Shown here piece by piece: positions 5,927 to 62,374 of a stretch of 64,000 nt of DNA (the first letter of the stretch is position 1; each line of letters begins with the position of its first letter). The position numbers and the translations under genes were made by a program. The stretch is from a virus: the IMG/VR virus record IMGVR_UViG_3300033232_000039, positions 10,277-74,276 of that record; one strand, 5' to 3'. The notes under the pieces were generated by a model, which saw nothing but the letters and a program-made list of their open reading frames with translations, was not told the origin of the DNA and did not search any database.

Positions 5927-6103
5927 TTAATCAAAGTAATTACCAGCAGGTGCTGGAGATACCACAGGCTCTTCCTGATTACGTTGATTGCGCCAAGCAG
6001 TACGAATAGCACGCTCCATACGATTCATCATGTACTTGCCTGCTTTTGTAGCCTTGCCCCGTTTGCAATGAGGACAGCTACATGATTTAGGTGTTTGTTT
6101 CAT
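5927..6103 (-). CDS. Small hypothetical protein with CxCxxC (58 aa, not in track)
   Basis: MKQTPKSCSCPHCKRGKATKAGK...; fits operon spacing. Confidence 0.5.
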   Translation of the reverse strand: MKQTPKSCSCPHCKRGKATKAGKYMMNRMERAIRTAWRNQRNQEEPVVSPAPAGNYFD

Positions 6104-6216
6104 TTCATATGTCCTTCCTCTTTGTCACAGAAACTACAACGGCGTTTCCAAAACCAAACGTATATAGCTTTGCACTCACAGCAGCGCATCTTAAACAGTG
6201 ATTTGAAGCCTTTCAT
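6100..6216 (-). CDS. Small Cys-rich peptide (38 aa, not in track)
   Basis: MKGFKSLFKMRCCECKAIYVWFWKRRCSFCDK...; 4-bp overlaps at both ends. Confidence 0.4.
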   Translation of the reverse strand: MKGFKSLFKMRCCECKAIYVWFWKRRCSFCDKEEGHMK

Positions 6217-6440
6217 GCTTGTTCCAATATTTCTGTTTCGATACGTTGAATATCATCATGTGTCATTTTTCTTTCCAACCAAGGGGCAGGACGCCACCTA
6301 AGATCACACACAATGAAATCAATATCTGGATACTCTGCTGGATAACAGTGATCAGGGGTTGTATCTGTTTTAGCCGGAGAATATTTACCAACAATTGTGT
6401 AGTCAATAAGACAAGGAATGCCATCTATATACGTTTTCAT
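6213..6440 (-). CDS. Hypothetical phage protein
   Basis: 75-aa ORF with AAGGA RBS. Confidence 0.6.
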   Translation of the reverse strand: MKTYIDGIPCLIDYTIVGKYSPAKTDTTPDHCYPAEYPDIDFIVCDLRWRPAPWLERKMTHDDIQRIETEILEQA

Positions 6441-6443
6441 GTT

Positions 6444-6647
6444 TTATCCTTTCAATGCCCAATACGGGCGACGAACCCCTGTGTGATCTAGACTGGGATG
6501 TTGTAGCGCATCTTCAGCCCCAGGTCGTAAAGGCTGAGGTGGGTTGTGTTTACTTGGTTTGTAATGTTCAGCAGGATAGCCAAGATTATTAACACCCACA
6601 CCTTTATGATGTGCATTTCGTTTGATACCATCAAAAGTTGTACTCAT
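6444..6647 (-). CDS. Hypothetical protein
   Basis: 67-aa ORF overlapping the upstream stop. Confidence 0.55.
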   Translation of the reverse strand: MSTTFDGIKRNAHHKGVGVNNLGYPAEHYKPSKHNPPQPLRPGAEDALQHPSLDHTGVRRPYWALKG

Positions 6648-6823
6648 GCTGCTGCGCTCACTGTTTCTTTCAGTTTGTCAAAATTAGTAAGTACAAACAA
6701 ATAATCCGGTTCGCTCAAGCCAGTAGCTCGACGCGCATTGGGATCAAACATGTTGTATTTACCTGTTACTTTGATTTTTTCATAAGCATGGAATGCTTTG
6801 ATGTCTTTTTCTGTAAATTTCAT
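6644..6823 (-). CDS. Hypothetical protein (DUF5049-like)
   Basis: YEKIKVTGKYNMFDP motif; start at 6823 overlaps the DNA polymerase stop. Confidence 0.5.
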   Translation of the reverse strand: MKFTEKDIKAFHAYEKIKVTGKYNMFDPNARRATGLSEPDYLFVLTNFDKLKETVSAAA

Positions 6824-9435
6824 TTGAGTTCTTTCAAGTGATTTTCTTTGGCGGTAGCGCATATATTGATGATTTCCTCTTTGGTTGCTGTTGTTGGTAA
6901 GGTAACTGAGTGTGCCCAGTCAGGCCAAAAGATATCCAATTGCGCACCTAACTTAACCCGGGGATGTTGAATCTCAGGGAGTTCCTGCCATGCCATTGCT
7001 TCGGTGATACCTTGGTTTGCAAAGTGCATTACATCAGCATCATCACGAATGAGGTAATAACCTGCATCATGAATCTGACCTACTGGAAGAATGTCTAAAC
7101 GATACTTGGATGCTCTTACTTTTTCCATAAAAGTATTCATGGCCCGATTGTTCAATAATCCATAGGATTGGCCTAGGGCGTTACCTGCGGTACGCCCTTC
7201 GGCTTTGGCTTCATAAGGAACGCTGTCGGTGCCAAATACCACTTGCTTAAGTAACGGTGTGCGTACACGTAAGCCAAAGGCAACTTCGACAAAACCATCT
7301 TTGGATGCTTGTTGTAGTCTATTTTGTACATATTGATCTGATTCCTCATAAAGTGCGTGATATCCCTTTTCAATGGCCTGAGCTTTATCTTTATCAAAAC
7401 CAAGGTTATTTACTAACGTATGCCACGTACCTTGGTAAGTAAGTGCAAATGTTGGCCCTTTGGATTCTTGACGAAGATCAGGATATAGTTTCTTTATGGA
7501 ATTGATGGATTCCACTGTATCAATGATGTCAGGACATTGATCACTAAAGTAACTAAAGGCTCGCAGACAGTGACCGCAATAACCATCTGTATAGACTTTG
7601 ATTTTGTTCCTGTCTTTGGTTGTCAAGGCAGAGATCATGTCTTCCAATGAATTGAAGTCAGCACCAACAAATAACCAGCCATCCGGGGCACTAAAGCAAC
7701 TTTTAACTAGCTTGCTAAAGGTGGACTTGGAGGGTAGGTTCTGCATGTTGGGTTCTGAACTACTCAAACGACCCGAGACTGTTCCACCTAAGTTAAAGCT
7801 ACCATGCAGATACTTGCGGCCATCTGCCTTGTCAAGCCCATGTTCAAAAGCAGGAATAAAAGTAGAAAGAATCTTGCTAACCTTGCCATAACTAATCAAC
7901 GCAGTCAGTAGCTCTTTGTAAGCAGGCTCCTTGGTATGATTGATAAGCTTCTCAATGGTTTCAGCACCTGTGGCTGGCTGTTTTGTATCGGTGTAATCCA
8001 GTACAGGTAAGCCCATTTGTTCATACAACAGGCGCTGTAATTGCGGCCCGCTGTTAGGGTTAAACGTCACATTACTGAATTTATCCAGTGGATGTTGTTT
8101 TACCTTTAACTTGGCATTGGCTGCTTCCATTGCACTGGTTTGTACCAACAGATTGAGCACCTTAATCAATGGACTATTCTTGATCAGTGCCAAGTGGATT
8201 TCCTGTTGGAGTTCCAGGTTCTTCTTGACTTCTTTGATCTTGGTTTTATCCATTGGCATCCCTGTCAACTCCATCTGAATGATGGTCTTGAGACTTGGTA
8301 GCATTAGTGTTCGGTACAGCTCTTCCTGCTTGTCCTGAACCATGATAGGGGTGTACTTGTTCTTGACAAACCAAGTACTCAGACAGTCCACCAAGTTGTA
8401 CTGAAGCAAGTCTTTCAAGCTAATCCTGCGAATGTCCTTGATGTCTTCTTGTGCCCAGTTGCCAGCAAACTCATGTGCAAGCGCCTTCAAACCAAGCACA
8501 TTACCCGCTGTGCTGTTGGTAGCAAGGTAAGCAATGATCTTGGTATCTTGAAATGCTCTGGTCATTATCTCTAAACCAGTGATGCAACTCATTGAATCTA
8601 AAAGGGATTCCATCCACAGGGTGTAGATAATAACTTTAATGTCATAAGTTGCGTTGTGGAAAGTAAGTTCACCTTGGTATTCCGTGAAGAAGTTGAGCAG
8701 CAGTGCCCGTACTTGTGAATTGACTACCTGACAGCCAAAGCCCTGATGCATCCCTGGATCTTTGGAAATGTAATCGCAGGCAAATGCCAAGCCATTATGT
8801 TGATCCCAGGCAAAGCCAATAGTGGCTATCCCAGCTTCATTAAAACGCAGGCTGAAGCCCTCAATATCACAGGTGAGTTCTTTGTACTGGTGCAAGGATT
8901 CAAGGGCAGCAGCGATGTCCTGAAGGCTTTCTGGATACTGTGCTGTATGGATGATTCCGGTACCAAGTGCAAGATAGTTGCCATTAAACTGATCGGCAAC
9001 TGTCTTTAGGCTCATGGTCAATTTATCCTGTAGAGCTGGGTTATAGATCAATGCTTGATAATTAACCCCCAATACCACATTCATATGTTCATAGCCCTTG
9101 ATGGCACAGGGTAATACATATCCATGATGTGGCTCTGCCTTGCTCTGTTTGGTCAGTGTCTTGAAATAGGCAGCATCTGTGACATAAAGCAATGTGATCC
9201 CTAGAGAATTCATTGCTGGAAGTAATTTGTCAAGATACTCTTTAATGAATTTGACAGAAGCTTTACCGTTATCACCATATCTCAGTGTAAAAGCAATGAG
9301 TGAGGCATTACTGATACCTAGTGTATTTAATGGACTCACATAATTAGCTTGAATGTCTTGCTTGTTGAAAGATGTGGCTTTCAGTAGCACAGCGATACGG
9401 TAGTTTTCAGACTGTGTGAATACAATGTGCTTCAT
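6820..9435 (-). CDS. N4 gp39-like family A DNA polymerase with 3'-5' exonuclease
   Basis: Exo motifs CDIEG, FHNATYD, YNLVDC; SGRLSSSEPNMQNLP; motif A GADFNSLE; motif B RQESKGPTFALTY; motif C IHDA; 871 aa. Confidence 0.95.
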   Translation of the reverse strand: MKHIVFTQSENYRIAVLLKATSFNKQDIQANYVSPLNTLGISNASLIAFTLRYGDNGKASVKFIKEYLDKLLPAMNSLGITLLYVTDAAYFKTLTKQSKAEPHHGYVLPCAIKGYEHMNVVLGVNYQALIYNPALQDKLTMSLKTVADQFNGNYLALGTGIIHTAQYPESLQDIAAALESLHQYKELTCDIEGFSLRFNEAGIATIGFAWDQHNGLAFACDYISKDPGMHQGFGCQVVNSQVRALLLNFFTEYQGELTFHNATYDIKVIIYTLWMESLLDSMSCITGLEIMTRAFQDTKIIAYLATNSTAGNVLGLKALAHEFAGNWAQEDIKDIRRISLKDLLQYNLVDCLSTWFVKNKYTPIMVQDKQEELYRTLMLPSLKTIIQMELTGMPMDKTKIKEVKKNLELQQEIHLALIKNSPLIKVLNLLVQTSAMEAANAKLKVKQHPLDKFSNVTFNPNSGPQLQRLLYEQMGLPVLDYTDTKQPATGAETIEKLINHTKEPAYKELLTALISYGKVSKILSTFIPAFEHGLDKADGRKYLHGSFNLGGTVSGRLSSSEPNMQNLPSKSTFSKLVKSCFSAPDGWLFVGADFNSLEDMISALTTKDRNKIKVYTDGYCGHCLRAFSYFSDQCPDIIDTVESINSIKKLYPDLRQESKGPTFALTYQGTWHTLVNNLGFDKDKAQAIEKGYHALYEESDQYVQNRLQQASKDGFVEVAFGLRVRTPLLKQVVFGTDSVPYEAKAEGRTAGNALGQSYGLLNNRAMNTFMEKVRASKYRLDILPVGQIHDAGYYLIRDDADVMHFANQGITEAMAWQELPEIQHPRVKLGAQLDIFWPDWAHSVTLPTTATKEEIINICATAKENHLKELK

Positions 9436-13104: not shown

Positions 13105-13180
13105 TGGTTCTCAGGACGGGACTTGAACCCACAACCAAAGAATTATGAGTTCTCTGCTCTACCAATTGAGCTACCTGAGA
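13105..13180 (-). tRNA. tRNA with CAT anticodon (elongator Met or lysidine-Ile2), 76 nt, encoded CCA
   Basis: Reverse strand TCTCAGG TA GCTC AATTGGTA GAGC A GAGAA CTCATAA TTCTT TGGTT GTGGG TTCAAGT CCCGT CCTGAGA A CCA folds as a full cloverleaf. Confidence 0.92.
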
Positions 13181-20684: not shown

Positions 20685-20704
20685 CCAACATTTCGCGGAA
20701 CGCG
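20685..20704 (-). promoter_or_regulatory. Putative virion-RNAP hairpin promoter (P4)
   Basis: Plus (template) strand CCAACATTT-CGCG-GAA-CGCG. Confidence 0.65.
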
Positions 20705-20805
20705 CTTACTAGATACATATTAAAAACAGCATTACCCTTTAATAAAGATACTACTGTTTACTTTGTGTGTGACTGTCTTGGGTAAGAGTTATAAGAAGTA
20801 ACTGA

Positions 20806-20851
20806 ATAAAAAAACAAGTCACCTACTATTTACATAGTAAGTGACCTTGTT
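20806..20851 (-). terminator. Early intrinsic terminator
   Basis: GTCAC/GTGAC and TACTA/TAGTA stem; A-run on plus = T-run on minus; just after ORF 20853. Confidence 0.55.
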
Positions 20852-20852
20852 G

Positions 20853-21122
20853 TTAAAGTGCGAAACCTGAACCAGTGGTAGCAATGGCCGACTGATATTC
20901 GATTTCAAGCTTTGCCAAGATGATTGAGACACGTGAAGGATCACTGTTCAACCAGGCAAGCATTTCTTTTTCGCTGGAACGGCTTTCTTTCAAGGGGATA
21001 GCACCCAATTTCTTACGCTTGCCACCATCAGCAGCAGGCAGGTAGAAATTCAGGAAGCCCTGAGCTTTCCAGGATTCGTTAGAGGAAGCTTGAACAGAAG
21101 AAGTGTTTGAAGTGAAGGCCAT
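20853..21122 (-). CDS. Early protein, possible N4 gp2/Drc-like ssDNA-binding RNAP II cofactor
   Basis: MAFT...WKAQGFLNFY...GAIPL resembles N4 gp2 (KAQFWLNIGY...TGIPL, recalled); AAGGAG RBS before ATG 21122; early position. Confidence 0.45.
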   Translation of the reverse strand: MAFTSNTSSVQASSNESWKAQGFLNFYLPAADGGKRKKLGAIPLKESRSSEKEMLAWLNSDPSRVSIILAKLEIEYQSAIATTGSGFAL

Positions 21123-21159
21123 GATAGGCTCCTTAGTTAAGTACATAGGCAGGATTTGC

Positions 21160-21180
21160 CCATAATTTGGCGGAACGCCA
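21160..21180 (-). promoter_or_regulatory. Putative virion-RNAP hairpin promoter (P3)
   Basis: Plus strand CCATAATT-TGGCG-GAA-CGCCA. Confidence 0.7.
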
Positions 21181-21308
21181 GCAAAATTCGTTTAAAAACG
21201 CGGTTTGAAAAAGCTATACAGAACGTACAGCCAAGAGCAGACAAAAGAGACTAAATTGATCTATGCCAAGCTGGAGTGTATCCAGAAATAGATCAGTAGT
21301 TGCTTATA

Positions 21309-21485
21309 TTAGTCAGTACATTGGTAAGCAGTGTATAGGCCAATAGCAAAGCTAACGATGAAGCCAAGTCCAGCTAAGTACGGATGAAGGCCATGACCTT
21401 CATAGACGTATTGAAGGCCCAGCATTGAGAATAGGCCCATAAGAACAAGGATGAGAAGCATTGTGAAAGCATAGAGATAGTTCAT
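21309..21485 (-). CDS. Small early membrane protein (58 aa, two hydrophobic segments; not in track)
   Basis: MNYLYAFTMLLILVLMGLFSMLGLQYVYEGHGLHPYLAGLGFIVSFAIGLYTAYQCTD; AAGGA RBS. Confidence 0.6.
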   Translation of the reverse strand: MNYLYAFTMLLILVLMGLFSMLGLQYVYEGHGLHPYLAGLGFIVSFAIGLYTAYQCTD

Positions 21486-21518
21486 GAGAAGTCCTTAAAA
21501 AGTAGAGTGGAAGACCCA

Positions 21519-21539
21519 CCTACATTTGTACGGAGTACA
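21519..21539 (-). promoter_or_regulatory. Putative virion-RNAP hairpin promoter (P2)
   Basis: Plus strand CCTACATT-TGTAC-GGA-GTACA; C(GGA)G triloop as in N4 P2. Confidence 0.7.
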
Positions 21540-21802
21540 TCTTTATATCGTCTATATATCGGTATCATTTAATATATGAATATAGTAAATAACAATAAAG
21601 TACTATTGGAAAACTTATATTAATAGTCTCTAACTATCTCTATCTGTCTCTACCCTATAAAAAATAGATGTACAATAAACTCAGTAGAGTTTTAATAGAG
21701 TTTAATGAATAGACTTTAGTTAATACTAGTAAGACTATACTATTTATATATATACCTATCTATAACTGACTATCTCTATAGTGTGTAATGTGTAAAGGAC
21801 TT

Positions 21803-21826
21803 ATGCTACCTCCGAAGAGATAGCAT
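21803..21826 (-). terminator. Early terminator hairpin with C(UUCG)G loop
   Basis: Minus strand ATGCTATCTC-TTCG-GAGGTAGCAT just after the stop of ORF 21834. Confidence 0.55.
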
Positions 21827-21833
21827 AGATTGA

Positions 21834-22019
21834 TTACTTAGCAGTAAGCTTGAGTTGCTTGTTAAGTTCAATAAGGCGTACTTGCCTAGTAGTACGTGCT
21901 TCGTCTTCAAAGGCTGCTGCTGATTCCTCAGCAACTTTAGCCATGTGACCACCAGCCAGTGCCAGATCATTCAGCATGGTGAAGAGCGTGGTAACAAAGG
22001 TAGAGAAAGATTTAAACAT
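21834..22019 (-). CDS. First early gene, hypothetical protein
   Basis: 61 aa; GGAG RBS; downstream of the hairpin at 22051. Confidence 0.7.
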   Translation of the reverse strand: MFKSFSTFVTTLFTMLNDLALAGGHMAKVAEESAAAFEDEARTTRQVRLIELNKQLKLTAK

Positions 22020-22050
22020 AGTAAGCTCCAGTTGATTGATGGGGGTAGTC

Positions 22051-22070
22051 CCTAAATTTATCTGAAAGAT
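22051..22070 (-). promoter_or_regulatory. Putative virion-RNAP hairpin promoter (P1)
   Basis: Plus strand CCTAAATTT-ATCT-GAA-AGAT. Confidence 0.6.
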
Positions 22071-22260
22071 TGTGTATGGGGGGGGGCTGTTTTGTATTTT
22101 GGAGTTCAGCCTATAAGCCCTGTACTCATACCCAGATTACAAAATTCCTGAAAACTTTGCTATTAATTTAATAGTGAATATTTTCAAAATTAAAATTATA
22201 AAAAAATTATAAAATCTTTTTACCCTATACTTGCCACTATATTCACCCGATAAGGTAACT

Positions 22261-60068: not shown

Positions 60069-60359
60069 ATGAGTTATGGGTGGTTACTAGATGGCTTTAA
60101 CTCTAATTCAGCAGGATTTTCTGTATTGGATTCTTTTACCGTAGCTGCGAGTATTTCAGTAAATAAAACATATACATCTGACGTACTTAAACATGCCAAT
60201 AGCATCAAACTTTTTATAGTTATTGCTGAAGGCTCTTCTGATCATACTTTGTATAGTTATCCTACTTTAACTACTTCATTTGATAAAATTAATGGGATAG
60301 CTAGAGTTACTGGTAATGGTGGCTCATACCCGTTCTTTGTTATGGTGTTTATTCAATGA
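60069..60359 (+). CDS. Putative tail accessory protein
   Basis: 96 aa; MSYG start, beta-rich, follows the J-like gene. Confidence 0.55.
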   Translation: MSYGWLLDGFNSNSAGFSVLDSFTVAASISVNKTYTSDVLKHANSIKLFIVIAEGSSDHTLYSYPTLTTSFDKINGIARVTGNGGSYPFFVMVFIQ

Positions 60360-61249
60360 CTTATGGTTTTATAGCTAAAAGTACTAATGGTGCCTTATTA
60401 GCTTCTAGTGATAGTGCTAACTATGAGCTATCACAGAGAATTTCTTCTGGTACACGTACAGGTAATGTGGTAGTTTATTACTTTACCCCTGTAGAGTTTC
60501 CCGTATTTTTTGTGGAAACTCCTATTGGCGGTACTGCTGGCATATTAGATTTCACTAATAATTCTGTGCGTATCATTTGTAATGGTAATTACCCAGTCAA
60601 TGTGTATAAGCGTGTTAGCAGTGTCAGTGGTTTTGGTATTGCTGCATATGATAGTAAAAGTAAATTAACCTTCAAGGCTAATACCAATATATTAAATGTA
60701 CTATCAGCAGGATATATGAATATTGGGGGAAATTTTACTGGCTTAGGTAATTCAGTAGCTTTTCCTGCAGTAGCTTCAACAACAACTTTAGTTGTGTCAG
60801 AAGCTAATGTTCCATACAGTACTTACCAAACTTCACAGACTGTATGGGTTACTTTTATAAGTGGCTATGACCAGTGGGGTTCACCCATTTATTCCAAAAC
60901 TACTACTACAGTTAGAACAACCTGGCAAGTTTATGCTCTTGTACGTACACACACTTGGGCAGTAAAACGAGCAGTTGCTCGTCGTTTACATAGTACTGGC
61001 TATAGCCAGGATTGGGAAGTGCACTCATCAGGTTTTTACAAAAAAGTTCTATCTTGGACTTCTAAACCAATTGGATCTGATCAGCCTTTGGAACAAATAG
61101 TACTGGGTTCAGGCTATTATCCACCTATACCCCCAACAACACCTGATTCTATAGTGAATGGTTTTAGTGGTGCTTTTACTCAAGACAATACGTTCCCATA
61201 CTCTAATGGACAGACTATCTCTGCTATAGCTACTATTTTGACGAGTTAA
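60356..61249 (+). CDS. Putative tail accessory / receptor-binding protein
   Basis: 297 aa; MTYGFIAK start, FGIAAYD repeat-like motif, Thr/Ser/Val-rich. Confidence 0.6.
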   Translation: MTYGFIAKSTNGALLASSDSANYELSQRISSGTRTGNVVVYYFTPVEFPVFFVETPIGGTAGILDFTNNSVRIICNGNYPVNVYKRVSSVSGFGIAAYDSKSKLTFKANTNILNVLSAGYMNIGGNFTGLGNSVAFPAVASTTTLVVSEANVPYSTYQTSQTVWVTFISGYDQWGSPIYSKTTTTVRTTWQVYALVRTHTWAVKRAVARRLHSTGYSQDWEVHSSGFYKKVLSWTSKPIGSDQPLEQIVLGSGYYPPIPPTTPDSIVNGFSGAFTQDNTFPYSNGQTISAIATILTS

Positions 61250-61948
61250 AGAAATTTAACTAAAAAAATAGTTATGAATAAAACTTGCTGTTGTGTGGTT
61301 AAGCATATGCCTACGGGTTCAATACAGCGAGTTGACTGCACAAGACATGCCACGAGGACTTGCTTGGTTTAAGGCTTGATCAATATAGCTAGATAGTGCT
61401 GGAAAGTGCGGTTTTCATACTGATTTACCCTTTTTTAGGGCTCCGTAACTTTTAGGAAGCAGGCACATTGCCTGACTTCTAATGAAGCCAGAAAACCAAG
61501 ATTTTACTTAAATTCAGAAGACTTTAAGACAAGATCTGACTTAACAGCTATCAGGAAACCTACCGGAGGTAGCTTTTATATTAAAAATAAATAAGTACTA
61601 TTGTTTATCAGTACTTATTAAACAGGGTATCATAGGCCCTGCAACAGTATTACTATCAATAACTATTGATTAGTAATATATGTTGGTAGTGTGTTGGATG
61701 ACTGGCTTACGCAGCAACTTCCTACTCAACCTGTAAAACTTATTTCAGTTTATTCTGAAATTAACTTGTTTGTTGTTGGAGTACGTTATGCTGTCTGTAA
61801 GAAGTATTGGTTTGGCTTATTCTACTAAGTCAAATTACATTCCTAAATCTATCTTCTAGAGTAGATTGGTACGTAGTAATTCTGCTACGGGCAGTTCTCT
61901 TGTCAGTTAACTATCTTTTCTTCCTTTTAATCTTTTAGGAGACTTACT
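61250..61948. ncRNA. Candidate large structured non-coding element
   Basis: ~700 nt with no ORF of 60 aa or more in the track, tiled by at least 9 stem-loops. Confidence 0.4.
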
Positions 61949-62374
61949 ATGTCACAATTTTCTAACTACACTGAGGCTAACATTGTTGAAACTACTTTGC
62001 GTGGTGCAGCTTTCCCTGTTCCCGCTAGTGTCTATGTAGCTATGTTCACTGCGGATCCTACGGATGCCAACGTGACTGCCAATGAAGTTCAAGTTAGTAA
62101 TTGGCCTGCTTATGCACGACAAGATGCTGCTAATGGTGGTCTGATTGCTACAGGTTGGACTGCACCTTCTAATGGTGTTTCAACCAATGCCAAAGTGATT
62201 ACTTTTCCGATCAATAACGGTACAGGCAATGTGACTGCTACCCACCTTGGTTTGTATGATGCTGCTAGTGGTGGTAACTTGATCTACCATGCTCCGCTGG
62301 TATCACCTAAGACGCTATTGCCTGGTGATGTGATTAGCTTCAGTATTGGCTCACTGACCGTTACTGTCGCGTAA
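61949..62374 (+). CDS. Small tail-fiber-associated structural protein
   Basis: SNYTE...VYVAMFTADP...YARQ...ITFP...HLGLYDAASGGNL...KTL..GD motif set; AGGAG RBS. Confidence 0.75.
   Translation: MSQFSNYTEANIVETTLRGAAFPVPASVYVAMFTADPTDANVTANEVQVSNWPAYARQDAANGGLIATGWTAPSNGVSTNAKVITFPINNGTGNVTATHLGLYDAASGGNLIYHAPLVSPKTLLPGDVISFSIGSLTVTVA

Follow-up and report, generated by a model that had tools for sequence, protein, structure and literature searches.

The gene-free stretch of 699 nucleotides (nt) at positions 61250-61948 of a 64,000-nt window of viral DNA (bases 10277-74276 of the 75.5-kb IMG/VR virus record IMGVR_UViG_3300033232_000039), here called the island, is best explained as a scar of gene loss in a variable slot of a tail-fibre gene cluster, combined with a regulatory spacer, and not as a dedicated large RNA gene (estimated probability about 0.68). 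Due to the fact that the window encodes a virion RNA polymerase of 3627 amino acids (aa) and N4-type hairpin promoters, the source virus is assigned to the N4-like (Schitoviridae-type) podophages. The original prediction had regarded the island as one undescribed structured RNA of ~700 nt. This interpretation was not supported, because a pseudogene fragment makes up about a quarter of the island, the leader part folds with a z-score of only -0.9 and strong folding is limited to a core of ~150 nt for which no homologue was found. According to the proposed course of events, a deletion would have taken the first ~1 kb of a gene of ~400 aa, the last ~60 codons of which (61306-61485) would then have decayed. 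The leader of the following spacer (61681-61790) would have survived in a recognisable but weakened form, and the subsequent 109-aa gene would have been reduced to a stub of 23 codons. An AT-rich piece of ~195 nt between relic and leader (61486-61680) supplies four adjacent palindromic hairpins. The present role of the region may be limited to that of a transcriptional boundary and an extended 5′ leader of the downstream operon of a Gp80-type fibre gene; hairpin H2 would be a weak terminator, the 3′ arm of hairpin H5 would provide a -10-like box, and there would be pairing between an anti-Shine-Dalgarno (anti-SD) arm and the Shine-Dalgarno (SD) sequence in the leader. The palindromes would act as DNA or as mRNA hairpins involved in stability or processing rather than as a free-standing RNA. 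The positions of all features are listed in Table 1.

For the comparison, related loci (numbered with the prefix L) were gathered via the neighbouring proteins. Segment 61306-61485 is identified by this comparison as the dead 3′ end of the ~400-aa gene that fills the slot in related N4-like phages. Read in one frame, positions 61306-61479 align with the final ~60 residues of the 400-aa proteins, and the relic terminates in ...LPDF followed by TAA TGA (61480-61485) at the same stop place as the intact genes. The frame is interrupted by stop codons at 61333, 61390 and 61453, and 7 codons (21 nt) are deleted. Smith-Waterman scores of 84 and 69 were obtained against the 400-aa proteins of L004 and L005, compared to 38.8 +/- 4.9 and 38.6 +/- 4.5, respectively, for 200 shuffles with a maximum of 58. 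Scores against 15 further members of the family ranged from 60 to 83, and the match was C-terminal in every alignment inspected. The DNA alignment with L068 revealed TTGCCTGACTTxTAAT in common. Furthermore, a nucleotide profile was built that covers the end of the 400-aa gene, the spacer and the 109-aa gene of the relatives, and the best nhmmer match of this profile in the whole genome was 61346-61483 (E 9.4e-6 genome-wide, 1.4e-7 locally). The slot and the orientation of the relic, on the plus strand between a ~300-aa gene and a Gp80-type gene, are those of the intact genes in L004, L028 and L005. Every test of family membership (similarity, slot with orientation, disabled frame) thus gave a positive result, with the DNA profile and the Smith-Waterman scores relative to shuffles taken as the support for the relic. 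The hairpin H1 formed by its last codons has a partial counterpart in the intact homologue of L005 and none in that of L004.

The second recognisable part of the island is the leader. In the relatives, a conserved cassette of ~110-135 nt follows the 400-aa gene (L068:1449-1591, L069:3911-4054, L071:5210-5351, L004:11488-11618, L077:3716-3833). Its elements are a TGTAAT -10-like box, the GGATGRYTG motif and an extended helix of GCAGGAACTTCCGA with TCGGAGTTCCTGC that hides the SD of the following (109-aa) gene, with folding energies of -27.6 to -35.5 kcal/mol and z-scores of -2.4 to -4.9. The cassette can be considered a candidate for a cis-regulatory leader. In the relatives, GGATGRYTG..GCAGGAACTTCC is a conserved motif of the spacer and forms the 5′ arm of the helix, whereas the SD is part of the 3′ arm. 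This motif is matched in the island by 61696-61724, which is the second-best genome-wide match of the nhmmer profile described above (E 0.3; E 0.0044 locally) and lies collinear with the relic match, 213 nt downstream of it. The arrangement of GGATGRYTG..CAGGAACTTCC (anti-SD) with GGAG and a start codon ~52-58 nt further on, by which the cassette was defined, is present at 61696-61722 and 61778-61790. When the right part of the island was used as a single nhmmer query, the top matches among ~870 kb of related loci were to the L004/L028 spacer, and the spacers of L004, L077 and L071 matched at the same place by blastn. The homology of the leader is based on this collinearity and on the repeated matches from several relatives.

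The leader of the island keeps the CTTCC/GGAG pairing and the predicted fold topology of the relatives, and its fold, with a z-score of -0.91 compared to -2.4 to -4.9 in four relatives, does not exceed chance, so that no stable anti-SD/SD helix is predicted here. Since compensatory changes in this helix were absent among the 6 sequences compared, its evidence consists of conservation and stability only. The stub ORF (open reading frame) at the place of the relatives' immunoglobulin-like (Ig-like) gene has no protein similarity to the 109-aa family (Smith-Waterman score 30 versus 33 +/- 4 for shuffles), and no trace of that family was found in the island at the protein level. A degraded helix together with a stub would be the outcome expected of relaxed selection after loss of the downstream gene. 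One of the alternatives offered by the original prediction, a late 5′ leader, fits the right-hand third of the island, where 61681-61790 is homologous to the relatives' promoter/leader cassette.

The slot itself is variable. The gene order in the relatives is a tail-tip fibre gene, genes of ~95 aa and ~300 aa, then the ~400-aa gene, a promoter/leader spacer of ~130 nt and a gene for an Ig-like protein of ~109 aa, followed by the Gp80-type monomer gene and its ~460-aa partner. The 400-aa gene occupies the slot in L004, L028, L005, L068, L069, L071, L077, L078, L079 and L081, followed by a spacer of 105-190 nt, and the gene of ~109-111 aa is located 3′ of the spacer in L004, L028, L068, L069, L071 and L077. 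The slot consists of a spacer of ~135-145 nt only in L006, L011 and L041, and other small genes are found in it in L057, L059 and L084. Because this phage and the L006-type phages lack it, the 400-aa family is dispensable. The slot 5′ of the Gp80 chain-fibre gene can thus be described as a hot spot of gene gain and loss in N4-like phages.

Table 1. Features of the island and of the genes bordering it (window coordinates; SD, Shine-Dalgarno sequence).
Feature	Position	Strand	Description
Upstream gene p297	60356-61249	+	Intact ORF, tail-cluster protein without known family; left border of the slot
AT-rich 56 bases after the p297 stop	61250-61305		32-codon ATG ORF (61274-61372) begins here, without SD
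Relic	61306-61485	+	Pseudogene; 3′-terminal ~60 codons of a gene of the ~400-aa accessory family; three in-frame stops, 7-codon deletion
Hairpin H1	61452-61482		GGAAGCAGGCA/TGCCTGACTTCC; -14.7 kcal/mol; formed by the last codons of the relic
Orphan AT-rich core	61486-61680		30% GC; strongest palindromes of the island
Hairpin H2	61546-61574	+	Inner stem CTACC-GGA-GGTAG, then T-rich CTTTTATATT; weakly resembles an intrinsic terminator
Hairpin H3	61590-61619		Perfect 10-bp AT-rich inverted repeat AATAAGTACT/AGTACTTATT
Hairpin H4	61623-61641		CAGGG/CCCTG
Hairpin H5	61642-61685		19-bp bulged palindrome; -15.5 kcal/mol (+), -12.6 kcal/mol (-)
Leader homologue	61681-61790	+	Putative counterpart of the conserved leader after the relatives' 400-aa gene (GGATGACTG..GCAGGAACTTCC anti-SD arm, SD, ATG)
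Leader motif GGATGACTGG	61696-61705	+	Exact 10-mer, unique in the window
Anti-SD arm GCAGCAACTTCC	61711-61722	+	Includes CTTCC (61718-61722)
Apical hairpin TTTCAG/CTGAAA	61743-61760	+	Within the leader
SD GGAG; start codon ATG	61778-61781; 61788	+	Spacing similar to that conserved in the relatives
Stub ORF	61788-61859	+	23 codons; at the place of the relatives' 109-110-aa Ig-like gene
Remainder 3′ of the stub	61860-61924		CGTAG/CTACG; terminator-like CTGCTACGGGCAG+TTCTCTTGTC (61882-61894)
Ribosome-binding region TTTTAATCTTTTAGGAGACTTACT	61925-61948	+	Conserved along with the Gp80-type gene in unrelated contigs
Downstream gene p141	61949-62374	+	Gp80-type chain-fibre monomer; Pfam PF23140, E 1.1e-38; right border of the slot

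Several observations on which the original prediction had been built were confirmed. The island contains no ORF longer than 45 aa on either strand, and an SD is present for only one mini-ORF, the stub (GGAG-N6-ATG). That it is the longest gene-free gap of the genome is plausible, as the two longer ORF-poor stretches (5927-6862 and 21147-22230) contain small ORFs or genes, those in 21147-22230 being small early genes between promoters. The apparent gap of 940 nt at 5927-6862 on the minus strand is filled by five abutting or overlapping ATG ORFs of 58, 38, 75, 67 and 72 aa, which are likely real small middle or early genes. All ten hairpin stems reported for the island were found with the arms and coordinates given for them, and the 699 nt folded better than shuffled sequences on both strands, with -193.1 kcal/mol (z -3.55) on the plus strand and -173.1 kcal/mol (z -5.33) on the minus strand (0 of 20 shuffles as good in each case). 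In sliding windows of 150 nt, z-scores of -2.4 to -3.9 were observed across 61350-61900, and the flanking genes scored about 0 +/- 1. The mean z-score of the island (-2.35 on the plus and -2.38 on the minus strand) is the most negative among nine intergenic stretches of the genome, the others ranging from +0.35 to -2.1. The failure to match the island to tRNA, tmRNA or group I/II introns was likewise borne out, since no Rfam family reached its gathering score there. A tRNA-Met at 13108-13180 was the sole Rfam match in the whole window, the best matches in 61100-62100 at E <= 10 were noise (14-17 bits versus gathering scores of 34-100), and ARAGORN detected neither tRNA nor tmRNA in the island.

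Nearly all of the folding signal of the island comes from the core with its four abutting hairpins H2-H5 (61546-61685). The segment 61541-61690 yielded z-scores of -4.30 on the plus and -3.24 on the minus strand with 200 shuffles. The GC content of the core is typical of regulatory spacer DNA. The distance from the relic stop to the leader motif is 210 nt here versus ~21-45 nt in the relatives, and the core is ~175 nt longer than the corresponding stretch there. No homologue of the core was found in INPHARED, IMG/VR, metagenome contigs, genome contigs or the ~80 related loci. INPHARED was searched with blastn and the related loci with blastn, nhmmer and tblastx, while IMG/VR and the metagenome and genome contigs were scanned with exact hairpin patterns, which gave chance matches or nothing. 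The related loci yielded no island matches beyond relic and leader, and 61800-61924 was equally without homologue in these collections. The conservation from which covariation of a structured RNA would be read was therefore not found, the syntenic slots containing genes or a 105-190-nt spacer and lacking this sequence. A supposed second copy of the leader at 61540-61585 had been read by eye and was dropped, being no better than shuffles. The closest relative, L056, has a p297 homologue of 75% identity, and its contig ends 87 nt past the stop codon. A resemblance of this tail to the island, also seen by eye, was dropped because the similarity was not significant; the tail likewise had no significant match to the 400-aa family or to 61250-61305. 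Third codon positions of this phage and L056 are about 52% identical.

According to the first rival explanation, a functional plus-strand RNA is encoded by the core (about 61541-61690) and perhaps by part of the leader as well. It would be either a free-standing noncoding RNA (ncRNA) or a set of mRNA hairpins for ribonuclease III (RNase III)-type processing or stabilisation where the upstream tail genes adjoin the Gp80 operon. A newly acquired element of this kind, a small structured RNA or an RNase III-type module, would uncouple the fibre operon from the upstream tail genes. On the plus strand none of the 200 shuffles folded as well as the core, which is 5.6 kcal/mol more stable there than on the minus strand; 7 of the 10 hairpins of the island are also slightly more stable on the plus strand, and the position inside a co-oriented gene cluster makes transcription probable. 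However, the minus strand of the core also folds well, and for the island as a whole its z-score is even lower. The original argument that G-U pairs favour RNA on the plus strand was not confirmed, because the two strands have about the same folding excess and the energies of individual hairpins on them are only 1-3 kcal/mol apart. Only about 2-3 G-U pairs occur in all. Since the excess is nearly equal on both strands, DNA palindromes are indicated as readily as RNA. Moreover, no Rfam match rises above noise, conservation and covariation lend no support in the absence of any homologue, and no convincing pair of promoter and terminator brackets the core. Two weak terminator-like candidates of 5 bp (61560-61572 and 61882-61894) were found, compared to 1.2 +/- 1.2 expected. 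Both the functional RNA and the acquired module are considered unlikely.

Equally improbable is an explanation at the DNA level, in which the core is a protein-binding region whose palindromes serve as operators for a dimeric regulator or as an insulator that overlaps the fibre operon's promoter. It would account for the perfect or near-perfect AT-rich inverted repeats and for a folding excess that is the same on either strand. Within the 3′ arm of H5 lies a -10-like TAATAT (61674-61679) located 16 nt 5′ of GGATGA, and a TGTAAT box occurs at the same distance in L068 and L004; by this position TAATAT is a candidate promoter -10 box. The spacers of L079 and L081 likewise carry a long AT-rich palindrome after the 400-aa gene. 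On the other hand, no regulator was identified, the repeated half-sites AGTACT and AGTA(A/T)TACT were read by eye, and the palindromes are not conserved in the relatives.

Considerably less probable still is the insertion of a small mobile or recombination-derived element, such as a palindromic cassette or an element resembling miniature inverted-repeat transposable elements (MITEs), into the ancestral spacer. The extra ~175-195 bases between stop and leader motif and the imperfect 17-nt inverted arms at 61577-61593 and 61664-61680 would fit such an event, but no second copy was found in this genome or any of the collections, and no target-site duplication was seen. A replication origin or another single-stranded DNA structure, which the original prediction had also offered and for which the AT-rich palindromes are the sole support, is highly improbable, as the GC skew shows no inflection there, iterons and tandem repeats are absent apart from two weak two-copy families, the island lies inside the late structural cluster and the virion RNA polymerase hairpin promoters are located elsewhere (20685-22066), with no copy of their motif here.

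A number of observations weigh against the explanation of the island as a gene-loss scar with a regulatory spacer. The core folds far above chance, with a z-score of -4.3 and no equal among 200 shuffles, and four adjacent hairpins would not be created by neutral decay alone, so that something must have been selected or inserted. Positions 61250-61305 and 61860-61924 fall outside every recognised part. The homology of the leader is statistically weak when taken alone (E 0.3 genome-wide), and a profile built from the spacers only (4 sequences) failed to recover it genome-wide. Searches with protein profiles (HMMER) were not significant for the relic (E 0.12 and 0.43), with the same segment ranked first; such weak values are expected because the relic comprises 60 residues with X at the stops. 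Finally, the functions proposed for promoter, terminator and leader were read from the sequence alone. In the part 3′ of the stub, a weak SD-occluding helix CUUUUAA/UUAGGAG lies beside the p141 start.

Comparable arrangements are known from other phages. Module exchange in phage tail-fibre regions leaves gene remnants, for example the tfaD/tfaX 3′-end remnants of the Escherichia coli prophage DLP12. By analogy, what appears to be left of an accessory tail-cluster gene in the island is a truncated 3′ end interrupted by stop codons, in a variable slot near receptor-binding genes; here, however, the phage is lytic and N4-like, the lost gene belongs to an uncharacterised family of ~400 aa and an orphan hairpin-rich insert is present. 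In the early transcript of the T4 lysozyme gene e, a stem-loop hides the ribosome-binding site. The helix in the relatives' spacer similarly may bury the SD before the ATG, and both its topology and the CTTCC/GGAG pairing are retained in the island. In contrast to the T4 leader, translational control in these phages is a prediction, and in the island a degraded helix (z -0.9) precedes a stub of 23 codons. The PeSL (promoter/stem-loop) cassettes of T4-type phages reportedly flank mobile gene cassettes (Arbiol and co-workers, 2010). The short promoter-plus-hairpin cassettes at the borders of gene cassettes that vary between related phages would be comparable, but a search of this genome gave no family of repeated cassettes, and the likeness is one of analogy only. 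The N4 virion RNA polymerase promoters are small DNA hairpins with 3-nt loops, to which H2 (CTACC-GGA-GGTAG) is superficially similar. The consensus of this phage, CCWWMATTT-N4-GRA-N4, has four exact sites at 20685-22066 and is absent from the island even with one mismatch allowed.

The island is therefore regarded as largely ordinary, since features of this kind are known and only the phage itself is undescribed. Its many hairpins, its lack of ORFs and its good z-scores in a compact phage genome mimicked a large ncRNA, and syntenic comparison resolved most of it, which calls for caution with similar candidates. The orphan core is the sole possible lead within the island, and the well-folded SD-sequestering leader of the relatives could be a real cis-regulatory RNA.

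Further observations were made on the spacers of the relatives. A second type of cassette is located directly 5′ of Gp80-type genes (L006:10494-10630, L011:10401-10547, L041:10506-10641, L009:10034-10162) and consists of a promoter-like AATTTGAyy-N15-TATAGATTC followed by an SD-sequestering hairpin ATCTCCAGCAACA...TGTTGCTGGAGAT; the promoter-like motif is absent from the genome of this phage. The spacers L079:3677-3868 and L081:3671-3861 contain a canonical intrinsic terminator AAACCTGCTTCGGCAGGTTTTTTAT and then an 11-bp AT-rich inverted repeat AACACAATATA...TATATTGTGTT, a layout that resembles the core of the island with dissimilar sequences. In this group, the 400-aa gene thus seems as a rule to be followed by a boundary of terminator and promoter. 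The 400-aa family (alignment A2; e.g. L004:10285-11487) comprises 52 homologues, mainly on contigs of 58-79 kb, the size of N4-like genomes, and no Pfam or PHROG match was obtained for the two members scanned. The consensus contains a repeat, LCPxVxLWI..FFAxxS..VAxYYGLPYP...LKLYTYPK, which recurs as LCPxVxFWLGRSWY..LFAV..VAxYYGLPVPY...LLLYTFxR and suggests an internal tandem duplication.

The island is situated in a plus-strand tail-fibre cluster of 380-aa, 96-aa and 297-aa genes, the gap of 699 nt, and 141-aa and 464-aa genes. The 380-aa tail-fibre protein belongs to PHROG 496, and the Pfam domain Phage_Tail_Tip was found in its relatives. Homologues of p297 have 297-327 aa and 43-75% identity, and a weak homology (tblastn E 3e-4) links p297 to the 313-aa gene preceding the 400-aa gene in L004. 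At the right border, blastn similarity to L002 and L082, both carriers of Gp80-type genes, begins at 61925. The domain PF23140 represents the Gp80 monomer of the chain-like fibres of podophage GP4 (PMC13730344). Homologues of p141 number in the hundreds, are always 141 aa long with 70-82% identity and are spread over many phage types. A recent horizontal acquisition of p141-p464, first considered because of 82% identity to a non-N4 contig and because of GC content, was rejected, as the Gp80 family is simply highly conserved and the GC content of both genes equals the genome mean. The genes of 464 aa and 92 aa located 3′ of p141 (61949-64066) were compared by synteny with L082 and L084 and probably encode the partner protein of the fibre ('rope') and a collar protein similar to Gp77, respectively. 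If true, this N4-like phage would have a chain-like fibre in the style of GP4. The initial ~3.5 kb of the record (C1:1-3500), located upstream of the window, have a GC content of 50-63% compared to ~42% in the remainder; the record has no terminal repeats, and this GC-rich segment could be a chimeric join or a recently gained tail-spike segment at the contig end.

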